A stretch of DNA of 35,963 nt from a virus. The notes below the pieces were generated by a model, which was not told where the DNA came from, did no database searches, and worked only from the letters and a program-made list of their open reading frames with translations. The stretch lies in the IMG/VR virus record IMGVR_UViG_3300037423_002564. The stretch is one strand, 5' to 3'. The position numbers were made by a program, and so were the translations under genes. Below are positions 1 to 6,560 of the stretch, in pieces; position 1 is the first letter of the stretch; each line of letters starts with the position of its first letter.

Positions 1-22
1 GGGCCTGCTCAAGGGGTAGCTG

Positions 23-397
23 ATGGACAAGCTCATCTACGACGCCGTCTTCGAGCGGGACCAAGGCCGCTGCCAGTTCCCCATCGAGGACGGCCGCTGC
101 ATCGCCTGGCGCAAGTGCGGCGCGAGCTTCCGCGTCGAGGCCCACCACCGGCACATCCGCGGCCAGGGCGGCGAGGACACGGTCGAGAACCTGATCCTGC
201 TGTGCCAGGAGCACCACATGTGGTGCCACGCCCACGCCCGGGAGGCCGCGGAGCTGGGGCTGATCGTGCTGGAGAAGGACGGCCGCTACGACACCAGCCG
301 GCACGAGTGGATGGAGGATCAGATCCCCGAGGACGGCTACTTCGAGGACGTGGAGCAGGCCCTGTTCGCCCACGAGCCGGGCGACTTCGTGTGGTAA
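23..397 (+). CDS. HNH endonuclease
   Basis: VFERDQGRCQ...EAHHRHIRGQGGEDTVENLILLCQEHH matches the small phage HNH pattern (RD..RC, HH, N, C..HH). Confidence 0.85.
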   Translation: MDKLIYDAVFERDQGRCQFPIEDGRCIAWRKCGASFRVEAHHRHIRGQGGEDTVENLILLCQEHHMWCHAHAREAAELGLIVLEKDGRYDTSRHEWMEDQIPEDGYFEDVEQALFAHEPGDFVW

Positions 398-414
398 GGT
401 AGTACCAAGCGACC
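398..414 (+). promoter_or_regulatory. 17-bp motif copy GGTAGTACCAAGCGACC
   Basis: Perfect GGT-N3-ACC-N5-ACC immediately after the HNH stop and before the RBS of the next gene. Confidence 0.7.
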
Positions 415-427
415 GAAGGACCCACGC

Positions 428-1057
428 ATGGCCGACACCTCCCACCAGGAACCGCTCACCCTCTCGCCGACGGCGAACATGCCGGCCCACACGCTGGAGC
501 CGGGCTTCTGGCGCAAGGCGCTGCACACCGACGAGGAGCTGTACGCCGCCCTGATGCAGCTCCTGGAGAAGAACGAGGCGCGCATGACGCTGCTTCAGCG
601 CGCCTTGGACCGGGAGCTGCCGGCGGACGACGGCTACCTGCTCTCGCGCGCCATCACCTGGCTCGACAGCCAGGTCACGTTCATGGGGCGCCTCTTGAGC
701 GACGCGGAGGGGCTTTTGGACCTGGCCGAAGCGCACTTCCTGCTGCCGGCGGGCCGCAGCGAGATCTGCACCGACGACGAGGGCAAGCTGATCCCCTCGG
801 ACGCCAAGGGCTGGAGCTTCGACCTCAACAAGGCCACCCCGGAGGAGACCAAGGCGTTCAAGCCGCGCTGGACCAGCCTCACCACCAACGACCGCGAGGT
901 CGACTGCGCCGCCAAGTGCGTGGCCTTCCGCCGGCTGCGCAACGAGTACCAGGCCGTCGCCAAGGGGTTGGAGAGCAAGCTTTACAAGGCATCGGGGCTG
1001 CTGGACGAACTCAAGGCACGGCATCGTGCCGCGGGCCTGGTGGAGCGACCCCGATGA
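428..1057 (+). CDS. hypothetical protein, helical/coiled-coil
   Basis: GAAGGA RBS, GC3-biased codons, protein-like composition; no family recognised. Confidence 0.75.
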   Translation: MADTSHQEPLTLSPTANMPAHTLEPGFWRKALHTDEELYAALMQLLEKNEARMTLLQRALDRELPADDGYLLSRAITWLDSQVTFMGRLLSDAEGLLDLAEAHFLLPAGRSEICTDDEGKLIPSDAKGWSFDLNKATPEETKAFKPRWTSLTTNDREVDCAAKCVAFRRLRNEYQAVAKGLESKLYKASGLLDELKARHRAAGLVERPR

Positions 1058-1074
1058 GGGCCCGGTCCCATCCT

Positions 1075-1080
1075 TACAAT
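1075..1080 (+). promoter_or_regulatory. putative -10 box (TACAAT) for the RNAP operon
   Basis: ccatcctTACAATatg in a short intergenic gap upstream of 1108. Confidence 0.5.
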
Positions 1081-1107
1081 ATGTGTAGGGATGCGAGAGG
1101 GGGCGTG

Positions 1108-1341
1108 ATGCAGACCTATTGCTACGTCATCAAGCCGGTGACGGACCGCGACGAGAAGGCCATCCGCAACGTGATCGTCGGCCAGCAGATCCATGCCAAG
1201 GTCGCGCGCCTCAAGGGCAAGGACGGCATGGCCTTCTTGGAGGTCGTGGTGCCGGACAAGAACGAGATGGACCGCATCATCAACCTCTCGGCCATGATCA
1301 GCGGCCGGCGTCTGGCATACACGGAGTGGAGGCCCCAATGA
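1108..1341 (+). CDS. small hypothetical protein (MQTYCYVIKP...)
   Basis: Real part of ORF 916..1341; GAGGGG RBS before ATG 1108; ATGA overlap with the RNAP gene. Confidence 0.7.
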   Translation: MQTYCYVIKPVTDRDEKAIRNVIVGQQIHAKVARLKGKDGMAFLEVVVPDKNEMDRIINLSAMISGRRLAYTEWRPQ

Positions 1342-3182
1342 TCACCACCGTCGGCCAGATGATGGTCCAAGACGCGCTCCCCGCGAGCGTGCGCACGAAC
1401 GCGGTGATCGACAAGGGTGGCCTCGGCCGGCTGCTCAAGCAGGTGGCCGACAAGGAGCCCAAGCGCTACGGCGAGATCGTCGGCAAGCTCAAGGACATCG
1501 GCAACTTCTCCGCCTTCATCACGGGCACGAGCTACTCGCTCGACGACCTGGCGCCGGAGACCGGCATGCGCGACCAGCTCTTCAAGAAGCACGGCCGCGA
1601 GCTGGAGGCCCTGCGCAAGGAGATCGCCAAGGACCCCAGCCGCGCCAACCACCCCGAGATGCTGAAGCGCAAGGCCGCGGTCTTCTCACGCATCGAGGAG
1701 GACATGAACGCCCACATGGGCGAGCTGCTCAAGACCCCCAACGGCCTGACCGGCTGGGTGGCCTCGGGCGCCAAGGGCGACAAGAGCATGCTGCGCCAGA
1801 TGGTGGGCATGACCGGCCTGAACGTCGACGTCGCCGGCCGCCTGGTGCCGGAAATTGCCCGCAACTCCTTCAGCGAGGGGCTCTCGCCCATCGATCACCT
1901 CGTGCATGCCAACGGCGCGCGCCGCGGCGTCGTCAACACCTACACCAGCGTGCGCGAGCCCGGTGCCTTCGCCAAGGAGCTGAACACCATCAGCGCGGAC
2001 ATGGTGATCACCCAGGCCGACTGCGGCAGCTCCGACGGCGTGGTGCTGCCGCCGGACCACCCCGACGCGCTCGACCGCTGCCTGGGCCAGGACGTGCCCG
2101 GCATCGCCCACAAGAATGACATCTGGACGCCCAGCCTGGCGGAGGCGGCGCGCAAGAAGCAGACCGGCAACCTGGTCTTCCGCTCGCCGCTGCACTGCCA
2201 CGCCCACGAGGGCGTGTGCGCCCGCTGCTTCGGGCTCAACGAGGAGGGCCGGCTGCCGCCCGTGGGCGAGCATGTGGGCCTGAAGGCGGCCCAGGCCATC
2301 ACGGAGCCCCTGACGCAGCTCGCGCTCAACACCAAGCATACGGGCGGCGTGATCGGGGCGGGCAAGAGCCCGTTCCAGCAGATCATGCAGATGATGCACG
2401 CGCCCAAGAACTTCACCGGCGCGGCCACCCTGGCGCGCGTGGGCGGCCCGGTCACGGCGATCGAGGAGGCGCCCGCGGGCGGCCACCAGGTCACGGTGGC
2501 GGGCGTGGTCCACTACGTGCCGCCCGACTTCGCGGTGGTGGCCCGCCGCGGCCAGATGCTGCGCCGCGGCGATGCCCTCTCCGAGGGCCAGCTCCACCCG
2601 GCCGAGGTGGTCGAGCACCGCGGCATGGACGAAGGCCGCCGACAGTTCGCCGCGGGCGTGCAGAAGCTCTACGCCGACGCTGGCATCCGCGGCCACGGCA
2701 AGATCTTCGAGACCATCGCGCGCGGCGTGCTCAACCTGGGCCAGGTGGTCCAGCCGGGCGCCCACGAGTTCGTGCCGGGCGAGGTGGTCCACTGGAACGC
2801 CGTGGCGCCCTTGATGAAGGAGCCGCTGGAGTCGGTGCCGCTCTGGAAGAGCGAGGGCCGCATCCTGGCCGACGACCACGGCCCCGCCCGCCACTACCAG
2901 GTCGTCACGCCGCGCCTGCTCAAGGACATGGAGGCCGCCGGCCACCAAGACGTGACCGTCTACCGCAAGAACGCCCTGGTGGTGCAGCCGGTGATGATGG
3001 GCACGGAGCGCGCGGCCCTGCACAAGGGCGACTGGATGGCGAACCTGGGCTTCCGCTTCCTGGGCAGCCGCTTCAAGGAGAACGCGGCCACCGCGGCCGT
3101 CACCAACATCCACGGCTGGAACCCCTTCCCCGCCTACGCCGCCGGCAGCGAGTTCGGCAAGGGGCCCGGGGGCCGCTTCTGA
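1338..3182 (+). CDS. rpoC: DNA-directed RNA polymerase beta' subunit, C-terminal half (phage-encoded)
   Basis: TTVGQ, SGAKG, NSFSEGL, bridge helix GARRGVVNT, DCGS plus RSPLHC..EGVCARCFG zinc site, trigger loop GEHVGLKAAQAITEPLTQLALNTKHTGG; no NADFDGD; GGAGG RBS before ATG 1338. Confidence 0.92.
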   Translation: MITTVGQMMVQDALPASVRTNAVIDKGGLGRLLKQVADKEPKRYGEIVGKLKDIGNFSAFITGTSYSLDDLAPETGMRDQLFKKHGRELEALRKEIAKDPSRANHPEMLKRKAAVFSRIEEDMNAHMGELLKTPNGLTGWVASGAKGDKSMLRQMVGMTGLNVDVAGRLVPEIARNSFSEGLSPIDHLVHANGARRGVVNTYTSVREPGAFAKELNTISADMVITQADCGSSDGVVLPPDHPDALDRCLGQDVPGIAHKNDIWTPSLAEAARKKQTGNLVFRSPLHCHAHEGVCARCFGLNEEGRLPPVGEHVGLKAAQAITEPLTQLALNTKHTGGVIGAGKSPFQQIMQMMHAPKNFTGAATLARVGGPVTAIEEAPAGGHQVTVAGVVHYVPPDFAVVARRGQMLRRGDALSEGQLHPAEVVEHRGMDEGRRQFAAGVQKLYADAGIRGHGKIFETIARGVLNLGQVVQPGAHEFVPGEVVHWNAVAPLMKEPLESVPLWKSEGRILADDHGPARHYQVVTPRLLKDMEAAGHQDVTVYRKNALVVQPVMMGTERAALHKGDWMANLGFRFLGSRFKENAATAAVTNIHGWNPFPAYAAGSEFGKGPGGRF

Positions 3183-3559
3183 TGAACGGCGTGCGGCTGG
3201 TCAAGGGCAACACGCGGCTCGTGCTCCTGTTCGACTCCTACGCCATCAAGGTGCCCCGCCCGGGCAACGAGGCGGACGGCCGCGAGGCCAACCGGCGCGA
3301 GGCGGCGCTCTGGAAGGCGCACCAGGACGAGCGGCTCTGCCCGGTGCTCTTCGCCGACGAGAAGGGTGCGATCCTGGTCATGCGCCGGGCGCAGAAGTAC
3401 TACGCCTACAACAAGAAGGACTTCATCGACCAGGTGTACTGGCGCAAGGTGTTCACGGACTTCCTGGCCTTCGCCAACGACATGCACCCGGGCAACTTCG
3501 GCTACCTGGATGGGCGCCTGGTGCTCCTGGACTACGGCACCATGCTGGTGGAGGGATAG
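3182..3559 (+). CDS. minimal protein-kinase-like protein (125 aa)
   Basis: GNTRLV, AIKVP, NRREA, DMHPGN and LLDYG correspond to kinase-like subdomains I, II, III, VIb and VII; TGATG coupling to the RNAP gene. Confidence 0.8.
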   Translation: MNGVRLVKGNTRLVLLFDSYAIKVPRPGNEADGREANRREAALWKAHQDERLCPVLFADEKGAILVMRRAQKYYAYNKKDFIDQVYWRKVFTDFLAFANDMHPGNFGYLDGRLVLLDYGTMLVEG

Positions 3560-4327
3560 ATGCGCGACTTCAACGAGATCATCGCGGCCCTGGGCATTCC
3601 CGACGACGTCGACCCGATGGCGGTGGTGGGCGACGGCAGCGAGCTGCGCCAGGGCGCCCTCAAGGAGGGCATGGTCAACGCGGTCGACAAGGTCAGCATG
3701 AACTACCAGTTGCTGCACCTGCGCCTGGAGACCATGCTGATCAGCATGCTCGAAACCCTCTACCGGCAGGACGACACCTTCACCTTCAACCCGGAGGACG
3801 AGATGGACTCCGGCATCGTGATCACCAACACCTTCAGCCGCAACGCGGTGGAAGGTCGCGACAAGCGCCCGGTCATCGTCATCGGCTTCGAGAGCGGCCA
3901 GCCCTCGAACCTGGTGCTGCGCGACGCGGCCTGGCGCTCCCCGCCGAACATGCTGCCGATGGAGAAGAAGCAGGTCTTCGAGACCATGCGCTTCCGCATC
4001 GCCTGCATCCACACCAACCGCTGGATCGCGAGCTTCCTGGGCGGCCAGGTGCGCGCCTTCATCGCGAGCTACATGGACGTGCTGCGCGTGGCCTTCAACC
4101 TCCAGAAGGTCTACCCGCCCGCGTTGGCCGGCCTGGGCCTGCTCGACACCTACGACGACCTGTTCGCCTGCATGATCGACCTCCAGGTCGAGGTGTTGCC
4201 CGTCTGGACGCAGACCAAGGACCCCAAGCAGATCAAGCGCATCATCGTGAGCGTCGAGGCCACGGTGGCGCGCCAGCTCCAGGGCGCGCTCACGCAGGAC
4301 ATCGAAGTGGTGCGGGTGGAGCCGTGA
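3560..4327 (+). CDS. putative tail terminator / tail completion protein
   Basis: RPVIVIG...FRIACI...ASFLGGQVRAFI alternating strand/helix pattern resembles tail-completion proteins; the CDS is clear, the function is inferred. Confidence 0.5.
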   Translation: MRDFNEIIAALGIPDDVDPMAVVGDGSELRQGALKEGMVNAVDKVSMNYQLLHLRLETMLISMLETLYRQDDTFTFNPEDEMDSGIVITNTFSRNAVEGRDKRPVIVIGFESGQPSNLVLRDAAWRSPPNMLPMEKKQVFETMRFRIACIHTNRWIASFLGGQVRAFIASYMDVLRVAFNLQKVYPPALAGLGLLDTYDDLFACMIDLQVEVLPVWTQTKDPKQIKRIIVSVEATVARQLQGALTQDIEVVRVEP

Positions 4328-4539
4328 GGCCCCGCCCCGCTCACCCGCGCACCGGCGGAAACAGGCGCCGGAAATGCCCCTGCTGCAAGCGCTTCTTGAA
4401 GCGCGATCGCGTGGACCACTACTGCCAGCCCTGCCGCACCGAAGCCCGGCGCCGGCGCGCCGACCGCGCGGCCATCGAGCGCGAGCCGCGCTGGGGCGGC
4501 CACCTGCTGGGCGATCTTTTGAGGTTGGCGAGCGGGTAG
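4324..4539 (+). CDS. small basic zinc-finger protein
   Basis: RKCPCCKR...HYCQPCR two CxxC pairs; GTGA overlap with upstream stop; ends just before the terminator. Confidence 0.55.
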   Translation: MRPRPAHPRTGGNRRRKCPCCKRFLKRDRVDHYCQPCRTEARRRRADRAAIEREPRWGGHLLGDLLRLASG

Positions 4540-5900: not shown

Positions 5901-6560
5901 TTAATCGCCCTGGCCGCCACCGGACCGACCGTCGGTCTGACCCGGCGCGGGAGCGGGGCTGGGGGTGGTGGGGGCCTCCGCGGCCGGCTCGGGGATGGCC
6001 GGGGTCTCGGTCGCGGGGGCGCTCTCGGGCGGCGTCATCACCCGGCCCGCGATCAGGTCGCGGATGCCGTTGAACATCGCCATCTGCCGGATGTCGAAGG
6101 GCAGGTTGCCGCTGTCGTAGAGGTTCTCGGCGATGCTCCACAGCTCCACCATGGCAAGGAAGTACATCACGGACTTGTGACCCCAGACGTCGCCCAGCAA
6201 GGGGATGGTCAGGGCGCCGGCGATGTACAGCAGCAGGTAGTCGCGGAACTTGGGCAGCCCCTTGTCGCGCATGATGCGGCTCGTGAAGGGCAGGCCCTGC
6301 TTGCGGCAGGCGTTGTACTTCGTGATGAGGTCGATGGTCAAGAGCGCGAACAGGGCGCCCAGGCTGGCGATGTGATCCGGCAGCACGGCGGTGAACTTCG
6401 CCATCACCGTACTCAAGATGGTGCCCATGGCGACGAGCACCGGCTTGTCCTTCAGGAGGTGCCAAAAGTACACGGCGTAGTTGGCCGCCTCGTGGACGGC
6501 CCCTTGGACCTGCTGCACCGACTCGCGGGCGCCGACGGGCGTCGGGGTGTTGGTTGCCAT
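5901..6560 (-). CDS. phage holin (toxin-secretion/phage lysis holin type)
   Basis: Several TM segments with IDLITK...TSRIMRDKGLPK...ELWSIAENL signature. Confidence 0.8.
   Translation of the reverse strand: MATNTPTPVGARESVQQVQGAVHEAANYAVYFWHLLKDKPVLVAMGTILSTVMAKFTAVLPDHIASLGALFALLTIDLITKYNACRKQGLPFTSRIMRDKGLPKFRDYLLLYIAGALTIPLLGDVWGHKSVMYFLAMVELWSIAENLYDSGNLPFDIRQMAMFNGIRDLIAGRVMTPPESAPATETPAIPEPAAEAPTTPSPAPAPGQTDGRSGGGQGD

Follow-up and report, generated by a model that had tools for sequence, protein, structure and literature searches.

A phage-encoded C-terminal half of a bacterial-type RNA polymerase beta' subunit and its probable origin by a cut in a one-gene enzyme

Background

Multisubunit RNA polymerases (RNAPs) encoded by phages are known mainly from phiKZ and AR9, whose enzymes are very divergent and carry no sigma homologues. 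Here we describe a gene, designated beta'C, for the C-terminal half of a bacterial-type RNAP beta' subunit, located in a stretch of 35,963 nucleotides (the window) of the virus record IMGVR_UViG_3300037423_002564. The window corresponds to bases 79088-115050 of the complete record, which comprises 203,733 bp with direct terminal repeats and has a G+C content of 67.6%. An earlier sequence-only reading of the window had described the product as a split beta' subunit that stays close to bacterial RpoC but has a rewired bridge helix and trigger loop, and had assigned it to an independently acquired phage polymerase.

The phiKZ- and AR9-type polymerases are phage-encoded two-barrel enzymes in which beta' is cut in a region similar to that of the phage studied here. 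They are, however, far more divergent, their beta subunit is cut as well, two enzyme sets are usually present and sigma homologues are missing, whereas the present phage has an uncut beta part, a single enzyme set and a sigma-70-type gene. Group 1 (phiKZ-type) jumbo phages lack a sigma factor (PMC7824862), the AR9 and phiKZ enzymes have no homologues of the bacterial alpha, sigma and omega subunits (PMC13282480), and reviews of jumbo-phage polymerases cover only these two kinds (PMC7824862, PMC13282480).

The same two-gene layout as in the present phage is found in Salmonella phage Arash (gp206 and gp216, OQ632216) and in the Vibrio phages D69, D181 and D148, which encode a chain of ~1525 aa annotated as 'beta' and a chain of 606-609 aa with the start point of beta'C, with an SNF2 helicase gene alongside and sigma-70-type genes in the same genomes. 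Identity to the proteins of the present phage is 28-32%, the Arash and Vibrio sequences belong to another large split clade, and the genes in the gap are different; the bridge helix of these phages reads SKPG and the trigger loop G/S-T-K-H. In the Arash paper the chains are annotated as beta and beta', and its passages on RNA polymerase and sigma factors mention neither the fusion, nor the cut, nor changes in the active site (PMC10585845).

A further set, mReC, consists of 97 metagenomic tailed-phage contigs in which beta and beta' were recognised by cellular profiles (Weinheimer and Aylward 2020, PMC7481178). These uncultured tailed phages, some of them larger than 200 kb, have a beta/beta' clade apart from cells, and the published table lists separate open reading frames (ORFs) of 997-1422 aa for beta and 899-1342 aa for beta' (PMC7481178). 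The main text of that paper mentions no split, sigma factor, intein or virion and uses 'fused' and 'fusion' for crAssphage only; a Gp23-type capsid match was obtained in only 8 of the 97 contigs (PMC7481178). That capsid type (Pfam Gp23, PF07068) gave no match at E 1 in the complete genome analysed here. The mReC paper may cover the present lineage without describing its two-gene layout.

Among cellular enzymes, the RpoC1 and RpoC2 subunits of cyanobacteria and plastids result from a cut of beta' in almost the same inter-domain stretch as in the present phage, in which, by contrast, the N-terminal half is fused to beta instead of being free-standing and no large SI3 insertion is present. Natural beta-beta' fusions occur in Helicobacter and Wolbachia, where the two subunits are joined head-to-tail in one reading frame, like the unsplit phage relatives described below, but these are ordinary cellular enzymes with alpha and omega subunits and an uncut beta'. 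The phage enzyme differs from them in being compact (~2050 aa in total) and in lacking the beta' N-terminal zinc ribbon.

The beta'C gene and its product

We consider, with a probability of about 0.8, that beta'C is part of the phage's own two-chain bacterial-type RNAP, produced by a clean cut of a one-gene enzyme, with the assembly, sigma use, packaging and catalysis proposed below. Judged from its sequence, beta'C is the C-terminal half of a bacterial-type beta', as indicated by matches to Rpb1 profiles, the GAR.G start of the aligned bridge-helix stretch, the catalytic Gln and His, and a four-Cys zinc site. It thus bears the mobile half of the active centre and cannot form a polymerase without the upstream chain.

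The gene runs from an ATG to a TGA codon (Table 1), with the sequence GGAGG 6 nt 5' of the ATG, which shares the bases ATGA with the stop codon of a 76-aa ORF in another frame. The start residue is common to close homologues in the alignment; a longer frame from 1119 was rejected as the coding start, and its first 73 residues resemble out-of-frame sequence. The frame is intact, with a G+C content at third codon positions (GC3) of 0.91. In Pfam searches the product matched Rpb1_5 at 61.3 bits (cut-off 28.5) and Rpb1_4 at 23.3 bits, slightly short of the cut-off of 24.8, and phmmer searches of PDB sequences returned only bacterial beta' as top matches (E 1e-42), spanning residues 3-489. The AlphaFold2 (AF2) model, built on an alignment of 29 sequences (A1), has a mean predicted local distance difference test (pLDDT) score of 81, and the chains that Foldseek matches best to it are those of bacterial beta', over ~570-640 aligned columns at 20-24% identity. 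Confidence is low for the final ~50 residues of the model; bacterial beta' proteins match positions 546-597 of the family model described below close to their own C-termini.

The second zinc site is formed by C229, C287, C294 and C297, aligned to E. coli C814, C888, C895 and C898, and all four Cys are invariant in alignment A1, bacterial beta' included, as are G193-A-R-R-G197, Q327 and H334. Several statements of the sequence-only reading were thereby borne out, namely that the protein starts at the TTVG motif (MITTVGQ aligns with TTVGR at E. coli beta' 572-576), that it runs to the normal end of beta' and that it keeps the four Cys. The statement that it stays close to RpoC holds in so far as beta'C is much closer to bacterial beta' than the phiKZ and AR9 pieces are, but the identity and phmmer values given above do not agree with a recent copy.

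The partner chain and other subunits

The catalytic half of beta', which the sequence-only reading had noted as absent from the window, was located at genome positions 71888-76183 (L003:5288-9583), in an ORF of 1431 aa that ends 2.9 kb before the window and 4.2 kb upstream of beta'C. The order of its Pfam domains is Rpb2_3, Rpb2_6 and then Rpb1_1 and Rpb1_2, and therefore this partner is a beta subunit fused to the N-terminal half of beta'. The Mg loop reads NMDHDGD (residues 1339-1345) and retains all three Asp, while the beta' N-terminal zinc ribbon is absent from the chain. In the beta part the rifampicin determinants D516, H526 and S531 are replaced by Ile, Asn and Thr.

Profile searches of the whole genome gave a single beta part and a single beta'C, and a second polymerase set was accordingly rejected. 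A Sigma70_r2 match of 47 bits was obtained in a 394-aa ORF at genome positions 116687-117871, and weak matches to sigma regions 3 and 4 in a 235-aa ORF. Thus, the search of the genome for beta, DFDGD-type and sigma genes that had been suggested yielded both the fusion chain and a sigma-70-type gene, and the description of beta'C as an apparently functional subunit of a phage-encoded multisubunit RNAP, neither an orphan nor a recent host fragment, stands. With the alpha and omega profiles (PF01000, PF01193 and PF01192) the complete genome gave nothing at E 1, whereas each of the 14 control genomes was matched (14/14); host alpha and omega subunits could in principle serve this enzyme. Three large upstream ORFs of 1534, 1544 and 1291 aa lack Pfam matches and, by this measure, do not encode further polymerase subunits.

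Relatives with a single chain and the position of the cut

A HMMER search of 1.84 billion cluster representatives (clusters at 50% identity) gave 5919 matches, 1210 of them at E <=1e-30; the best 150 all have E <1e-72, far better than any bacterial beta'. A second scan, of IMG/VR, gave 186 relatives of the split clade, the best 80 of which include many on contigs of 180-226 kb. As judged with the family profile, 109 representatives start within 12 residues of the TTVG point and are standalone beta'C proteins, 37 have at least 1300 residues ahead of it, 21 have shorter N-terminal extensions that are mostly cut by contig ends, and 7 are N-terminally truncated; the 'unsplit' class used below takes in 21 incomplete proteins.

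Beyond what the sequence-only reading had noticed, the N-terminal half is thus fused to beta, and in related phages the whole enzyme is, by its domain content, one chain. Representative P0040 (2077 aa) contains Rpb2_3, Rpb2_6 and Rpb1_1 to Rpb1_5 in a single chain; the partner aligns to its residues 8-1472 with 35% identity, and beta'C to residues 1475-2077. At the junction the ends '...IEITGL' and 'MITTVGQ' abut on the unsplit '...VRVAG-KNTSAGR', with nothing lost or added. Unsplit genes are present on IMG/VR viral contigs of 163 kb (L030) and 94 kb (L031), in one of which an SNF2 helicase gene follows directly. The alignments indicate that partner and beta'C are collinear, residue for residue, with the ~2050-aa single chains of related uncultured phages, which argues that a one-gene enzyme was cleanly cut, that beta'C is the product downstream of that cut and that the split is derived.

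By alignment, the cut falls at about E. coli beta' 569/570, where a break is tolerated in cyanobacteria, too. The cyanobacterial chains 8h3v_B and 8gzg_Z (8GZG being a structure cited in cyanobacterial RNAP papers) align in phmmer from their residues 4 and 11 to beta'C residues 20 and 21, so that the rpoC1/rpoC2 break lies ~10-17 residues further on. No sign of a specific relatedness of beta'C to cyanobacterial or plastid RpoC2 was found. E. coli beta' cut near the TTVG place reportedly still assembles (Severinov and colleagues, 1996). The TTVG stretch looks like a generally permissive cutting place rather than a case of shared inheritance.

Inteins are very common in this polymerase family, with at least one interruption in 68 of 174 representatives (P0054, P0022, P0025, P0128 and others), and occupy its three most critical sites. 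They are located in the bridge helix (model positions 202-215) or in or just before the trigger loop (323-343), and one related locus (L024:3874-5438) has an intein directly after the catalytic DHDGD loop, in the form of an in-frame insert of ~520 aa with a LAGLIDADG-like motif. In addition, 23 standalone beta'C representatives in two clades (P0038, P0042, P0111, P0136, P0150 and others) carry a C-terminal extension of 340-790 aa; Pfam searches of two of these extensions (P0038 and P0111) gave no match.

Phylogeny

Trees were computed with FastTree on 179 rows, rooted on six bacterial beta' sequences, and with a short IQ-TREE search under a site-heterogeneous model on 55 rows; the root is an assumption resting on the bacterial outgroup. 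The family is monophyletic with respect to bacterial beta', with a support of 100 in FastTree and 99 in the second analysis, and this separation from the outgroup, which the sequence-only reading had proposed to check, does not agree with a recent fragment of host rpoC.

In the FastTree topology the unsplit forms make up a basal grade and all 109 split forms fall within a clade of 115 rows (98%), at least three changes of state being required. beta'C belongs to a clade of 23 rows in which all members are split (100%), and Arash and Vibrio D69 to the other split clade. Nearest to the 23-row clade are two unsplit sequences, P0057 (a single chain of 2565 aa with an intein) and P0068, in a group of 26 rows with 92% support and no resolved internal order. 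The IQ-TREE analysis concurs with the points above. The trees make it likely that the enzyme was one chain first and was then cut; one cut with a later re-fusion and two separate cuts explain them just as well as each other.

Bridge helix and trigger loop

Column profiles for 173 family representatives show that the changes in the bridge helix as well as in the trigger loop are conserved and do not reflect drift. From G193 to L215 the bridge helix of beta'C aligns with E. coli 778-800 without a gap, TYTSVREPGAFAKEL standing opposite TALKTANSGYLTRRL, and in the trigger loop QLALNTKH (Q327-H334) stands opposite QLTMRTFH (E. coli 929-936) with His334 kept, both as given in the sequence-only reading. 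Across the family Arg195, Gly209, Lys213, Gln327 and His334 are invariant or almost so; of these, Gly209 and Lys213, which align with E. coli G794 and R798, are retained in almost all members.

The Pro at 208 (E. coli S793) is shared by 100% of the clade of the window, 97% of the unsplit forms and 36% of the split forms as a whole, and the column requires four changes on the tree. R798 of E. coli is equivalent to R829 of the Methanocaldococcus jannaschii subunit A' (mjA') (PMC3077646), and Pro208 therefore corresponds to mjA' S824. Most prolines introduced in the M. jannaschii bridge helix lower or abolish activity, with clearly detectable activity left in a few cases, for example T821P and A822P; mjA' S824P has ~210% activity and was termed "superactive", which its authors explained by a fixed kink at the C-terminal hinge (PMC2776397). 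At the neighbouring position 207, 83% of the clade of the window has Asp or Glu; this position matches Thermus Asp1090, and Lys213 corresponds to Thermus Arg1096, two residues whose pairing locks the kink (PMC2776397). On the side of the helix that faces the trigger loop, E. coli D785, L788, K789 and T790 are replaced in beta'C by Asn, Thr, Ser and Val, respectively. In E. coli the D785A, L788A and K789A mutants are defective (D785A and L788A with lower activity), and K789 contacts L930 of the trigger loop (PMC3077646).

The AF2 model places the trigger helices at residues 313-334 and 345-354 with ~10 residues between them, and neither the alignment nor the model shows an SI3-type insertion. 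The bacterial Met-Arg pair (E. coli M932 and R933) and Phe935 are replaced by Leu330, Asn331 and Lys333. Since E. coli R933 corresponds to yeast N1082 and H936 to H1085 (PMC3325174), the Leu-Asn of beta'C is, as read from the alignment, the Pol II pattern, to which a Lys is added. Unsplit relatives are intermediate at this place, with MRTFH in 8 representatives and LNTFH in 2, and Lys at 333 is found in 92% of split forms versus 14% of unsplit forms. A basic residue stands at 331 or at 333 and hardly ever at both (raw counts of 114 versus 24, and both in only 2). A repeated compensatory swap of the basic residue from 331 to 333 was considered and rejected, one or a few events being enough to explain the counts.

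Proposed mechanism

[quoted passage not shown] The two chains would assemble non-covalently into a compact core, in which the covalent link between beta and the N-terminal half of beta' may replace the assembly role of the alpha dimer, and the phage sigma-70-type factor probably directs promoter recognition. Within the active centre, the conserved Pro208-Gly209 pair at the C-terminal hinge probably fixes a kink favouring fast nucleotide addition, and the changes on the bridge-helix face towards the trigger loop (E. coli 785-790) appear to have gone together with those in the loop (Leu-Asn-x-Lys-His). The altered catalytic dynamics or inhibitor sensitivity suggested in the sequence-only reading are likewise not established and would follow from mutational work on other polymerases. 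[quoted passage not shown]

By analogy with Arash only, the enzyme is probably packaged and injected, and would transcribe early genes without the host polymerase. The virion spectra given in the Arash paper include 3516 for the fusion chain gp206, the most abundant protein, 1210 for the beta'C homologue gp216, 467 for the sigma factor gp10 and 1148 for the SNF2 helicase gp217 (PMC10585845). The helicase part of an 845-aa protein encoded between partner and beta'C is 31% identical to gp217 (E 5e-52). Because of these virion data and the homologous helicase, an injected, self-sufficient early transcription machine seems the most likely role, a role outside the virion being its main rival.

Several observations weigh against this proposal. 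Assembly, sigma use and packaging are all inferred for the present phage. Sigma70_r2 had no match at E 0.01 in the records of two relatives, one 100% and one 88% complete, and no sigma-70-type promoter was found in window positions 1-4400. In the active centre, E. coli N792A, S793A, Y795A, R798A and R799A are almost silent (PMC3077646), so that part of the bridge-helix 'rewiring' lies on tolerant positions; the AF2 model predicts, at low confidence (pLDDT 54-69), a continuous helix at residues 184-219 and displays no kink; and once relatedness is allowed for, the move of the basic residue from 331 to 333 loses its significance (11 independent pairs, p ~0.25).

Alternative explanations

The alternative that fares best, although we regard it as unlikely, is that the enzyme is a non-virion polymerase only, which is synthesised after infection and transcribes middle and late genes while early genes are read by the host polymerase with phage sigma factors. 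The genome has one polymerase set, unlike the pairs of virion and non-virion enzymes of phiKZ and AR9, and the Arash authors themselves allow for carry-over of abundant enzymes into particle preparations (PMC10585845). This sits poorly, however, with the rank of the Arash fusion chain, which in the spectra cited above is the top protein of purified virions and is accompanied by beta'C, sigma factor and helicase; in the present genome, too, the polymerase genes lie amid very large ORFs without family matches, as is typical of virion or injected proteins.

A second alternative, which appears doubtful, concerns the history of the enzyme and not its role. Here the family and the many-piece polymerases of the AR9/PBS2 and phiKZ types would go back to a common origin, and perhaps to a common cut, and the family would not have been acquired independently. 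In the IQ-TREE analysis the AR9 beta'C-like protein (L017, 128354-129394) falls inside the split clade with a Shimodaira-Hasegawa-like approximate likelihood ratio test (SH-aLRT) support of 95, but its branch is very long (2.59), only 43% of its columns are filled and, by the approximately unbiased (AU) test, a position outside the family is still admissible for AR9 (p 0.25), and the placement within the split clade was for that reason treated as unsupported. In RP13 and IME392 the beta'-like pieces start close to the same TTxGR point, 0-35 residues ahead of it, and PHROG families of jumbo-phage 'RNAP beta subunit' match beta'C at 2.9e-17 and 1.4e-6; the nearest PHROGs (phrog_25354 and phrog_24349) are filed as unknown function. 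On the other side, with the family profile bacterial beta' sequences reach 182-297 bits (E. coli 238) versus 163 for RP13, 138 for IME392, 102 and 38 for AR9 and 25 and 18 for phiKZ, which places the family much closer to the enzymes of bacteria than the classic jumbo-phage ones are. The absence of sigma factors in the phiKZ and AR9 kinds (PMC7824862, PMC13282480) and the additional cut in their beta also speak against a shared origin. The 'beta-prime' genes of RP13 and IME392 were considered as family members and rejected, being ~500-aa pieces of the jumbo-phage type. As AR9 may lie inside or outside the family, the independent acquisition claimed in the sequence-only reading is not established. 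A more specific version, namely that the AR9/PBS2-type and perhaps the phiKZ-type enzymes derive from this lineage, in which a compact bacterial-type beta-beta' single chain was first cut at TTVG and afterwards underwent further cuts and divergence, and are not relics from before the last universal common ancestor, seems to us improbable; if true, the lineage would be an evolutionary bridge from bacterial RNAP to the many-piece 'non-canonical' jumbo-phage polymerases.

Much less plausible is an orphan beta'C that plugs into or modifies the host polymerase, for instance by replacing the C-terminal module of host beta'. Such a protein could borrow host components, in keeping with the lack of detectable alpha and omega genes in the genome, but the partner with the catalytic loop is encoded only 4.2 kb upstream, the pair is collinear with the single chains, and the synteny is kept in relatives.

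It is highly improbable that the two halves are rejoined, either after translation by a split intein or through removal of the 4.2-kb gap from the RNA as an intron-like insert, in spite of the HNH endonuclease gene within the gap. The chain ends abut exactly on the unsplit homologues and leave no room for intein halves, which rules out a split intein, and the gap holds the conserved SNF2 helicase gene, whose product is a virion protein in Arash; both forms of rejoining were rejected on these grounds. In Arash, moreover, the gap genes are on the opposite strand, and gp206 and gp216 appear as separate proteins in the mass spectrometry reported with that genome (PMC10585845).

A recent host rpoC fragment or decaying pseudogene, which would explain a general similarity to bacterial beta' and nothing more, was rejected as next to impossible in view of the 20-24% identity, the intact frame with its GC3 of 0.91, the catalytic residues common to more than 170 cluster representatives and the monophyly of the family with respect to bacteria.

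Implications

The reading of beta'C as part of a two-chain phage RNAP bears on a large family, in which at least 150 representatives at the 50% identity level outscore any bacterial beta' and to which 186 IMG/VR stretches were assigned. The family can be aligned residue by residue with bacterial RNAP, is compact, has sigma-70-type factors and appears to need no recognisable alpha or omega subunit. Its coexisting one-chain and two-chain forms would be a natural experiment on how an enzyme can be cut while its assembly is kept, and its naturally varied bridge helices and trigger loops include a proline at the single place where this residue is known to accelerate an archaeal polymerase. Should the enzyme be injected along with the DNA, for which the Arash virion data speak, host-independent early transcription in widespread large phages would be explained. 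A minimal two-chain, sigma-dependent polymerase could also serve as a laboratory tool.

Neighbouring genes

The features of the locus are collected in Table 1. Terminator matches in window positions 1-4400 were at chance level.

Table 1. Features at and around beta'C, in window coordinates
Feature	Position	Strand	Basis
NUDIX + SNF2 helicase gene, 845 aa, last codons (genome 76569-79106; L003:9969-12506)	1..19	+	Pfam
HNH endonuclease, 124 aa	23..397	+	phrog_740 1.2e-15; Pfam HNH 3.9e-4
Hypothetical gene, 209 aa	428..1057	+	GC3-based gene call; no Pfam match
76-aa ORF, stop overlapping the beta'C start (ATGA)	1111..1341	+	Sequence; no Pfam or PHROG match
beta'C gene, 614 aa (rim-helix region, bridge helix, second zinc site, trigger loop without insertion, C-terminal end)	1338..3182	+	Pfam, phmmer against PDB, AF2/Foldseek
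Bridge helix, residues 184-219; Pro208 (1959-1961) and Gly209 at the C-terminal hinge; Lys213 (1974-1976) opposite E. coli R798	1887..1994	+	Alignment, AF2, family profile, codons checked
Second zinc site, Cys229, Cys287, Cys294, Cys297	2022..2228	+	Alignment A1, E. coli alignment, codons checked
Trigger loop and two base helices, residues 313-354; Gln327, Leu330, Asn331, Lys333, His334; no SI3-type insertion	2274..2399	+	E. coli alignment, AF2, family profile
Kinase-like ORF, 125 aa, start overlapping the beta'C stop (TGATG)	3182..3559	+	Pfam ABC1 atypical kinase, E 0.0028, below cut-off

Four genes lie between the partner and beta'C, encoding the NUDIX and SNF2 helicase protein, the HNH endonuclease, and the 209-aa and 76-aa products. 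In four close relatives (52-62% identity) the order of fusion gene, helicase and beta'C is kept, with the HNH gene and small ORFs variable. Pfam matches in the helicase gene are NUDIX (6.8e-20), SNF2-rel_dom (2.6e-12) and Helicase_C (2.2e-7), and a homologue adjoins the polymerase genes in six of eight related IMG/VR loci, L028 and L030 having no match. A possible role for this protein is that of a RapA-like recycling factor whose NUDIX part would act on RNA 5' ends.

Of the eight related loci only L024 has the HNH gene, which is therefore probably a mobile insert. Homologues of the 209-aa gene were found in L024 and L025 only among the related loci compared, and the 76-aa ORF had no tblastn match in the eight loci. 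Downstream of beta'C, the 125-aa ORF is absent from L024, L026, L027 and L029, where the next gene lies directly 3' of beta'C; the product has the kinase-like motifs AIK, HPGN and DYG. Further downstream, a 219-aa ORF on the minus strand (window positions 5901-6560) has a weak Pfam match to Phage_holin_4_1 (E 9e-4, below cut-off).

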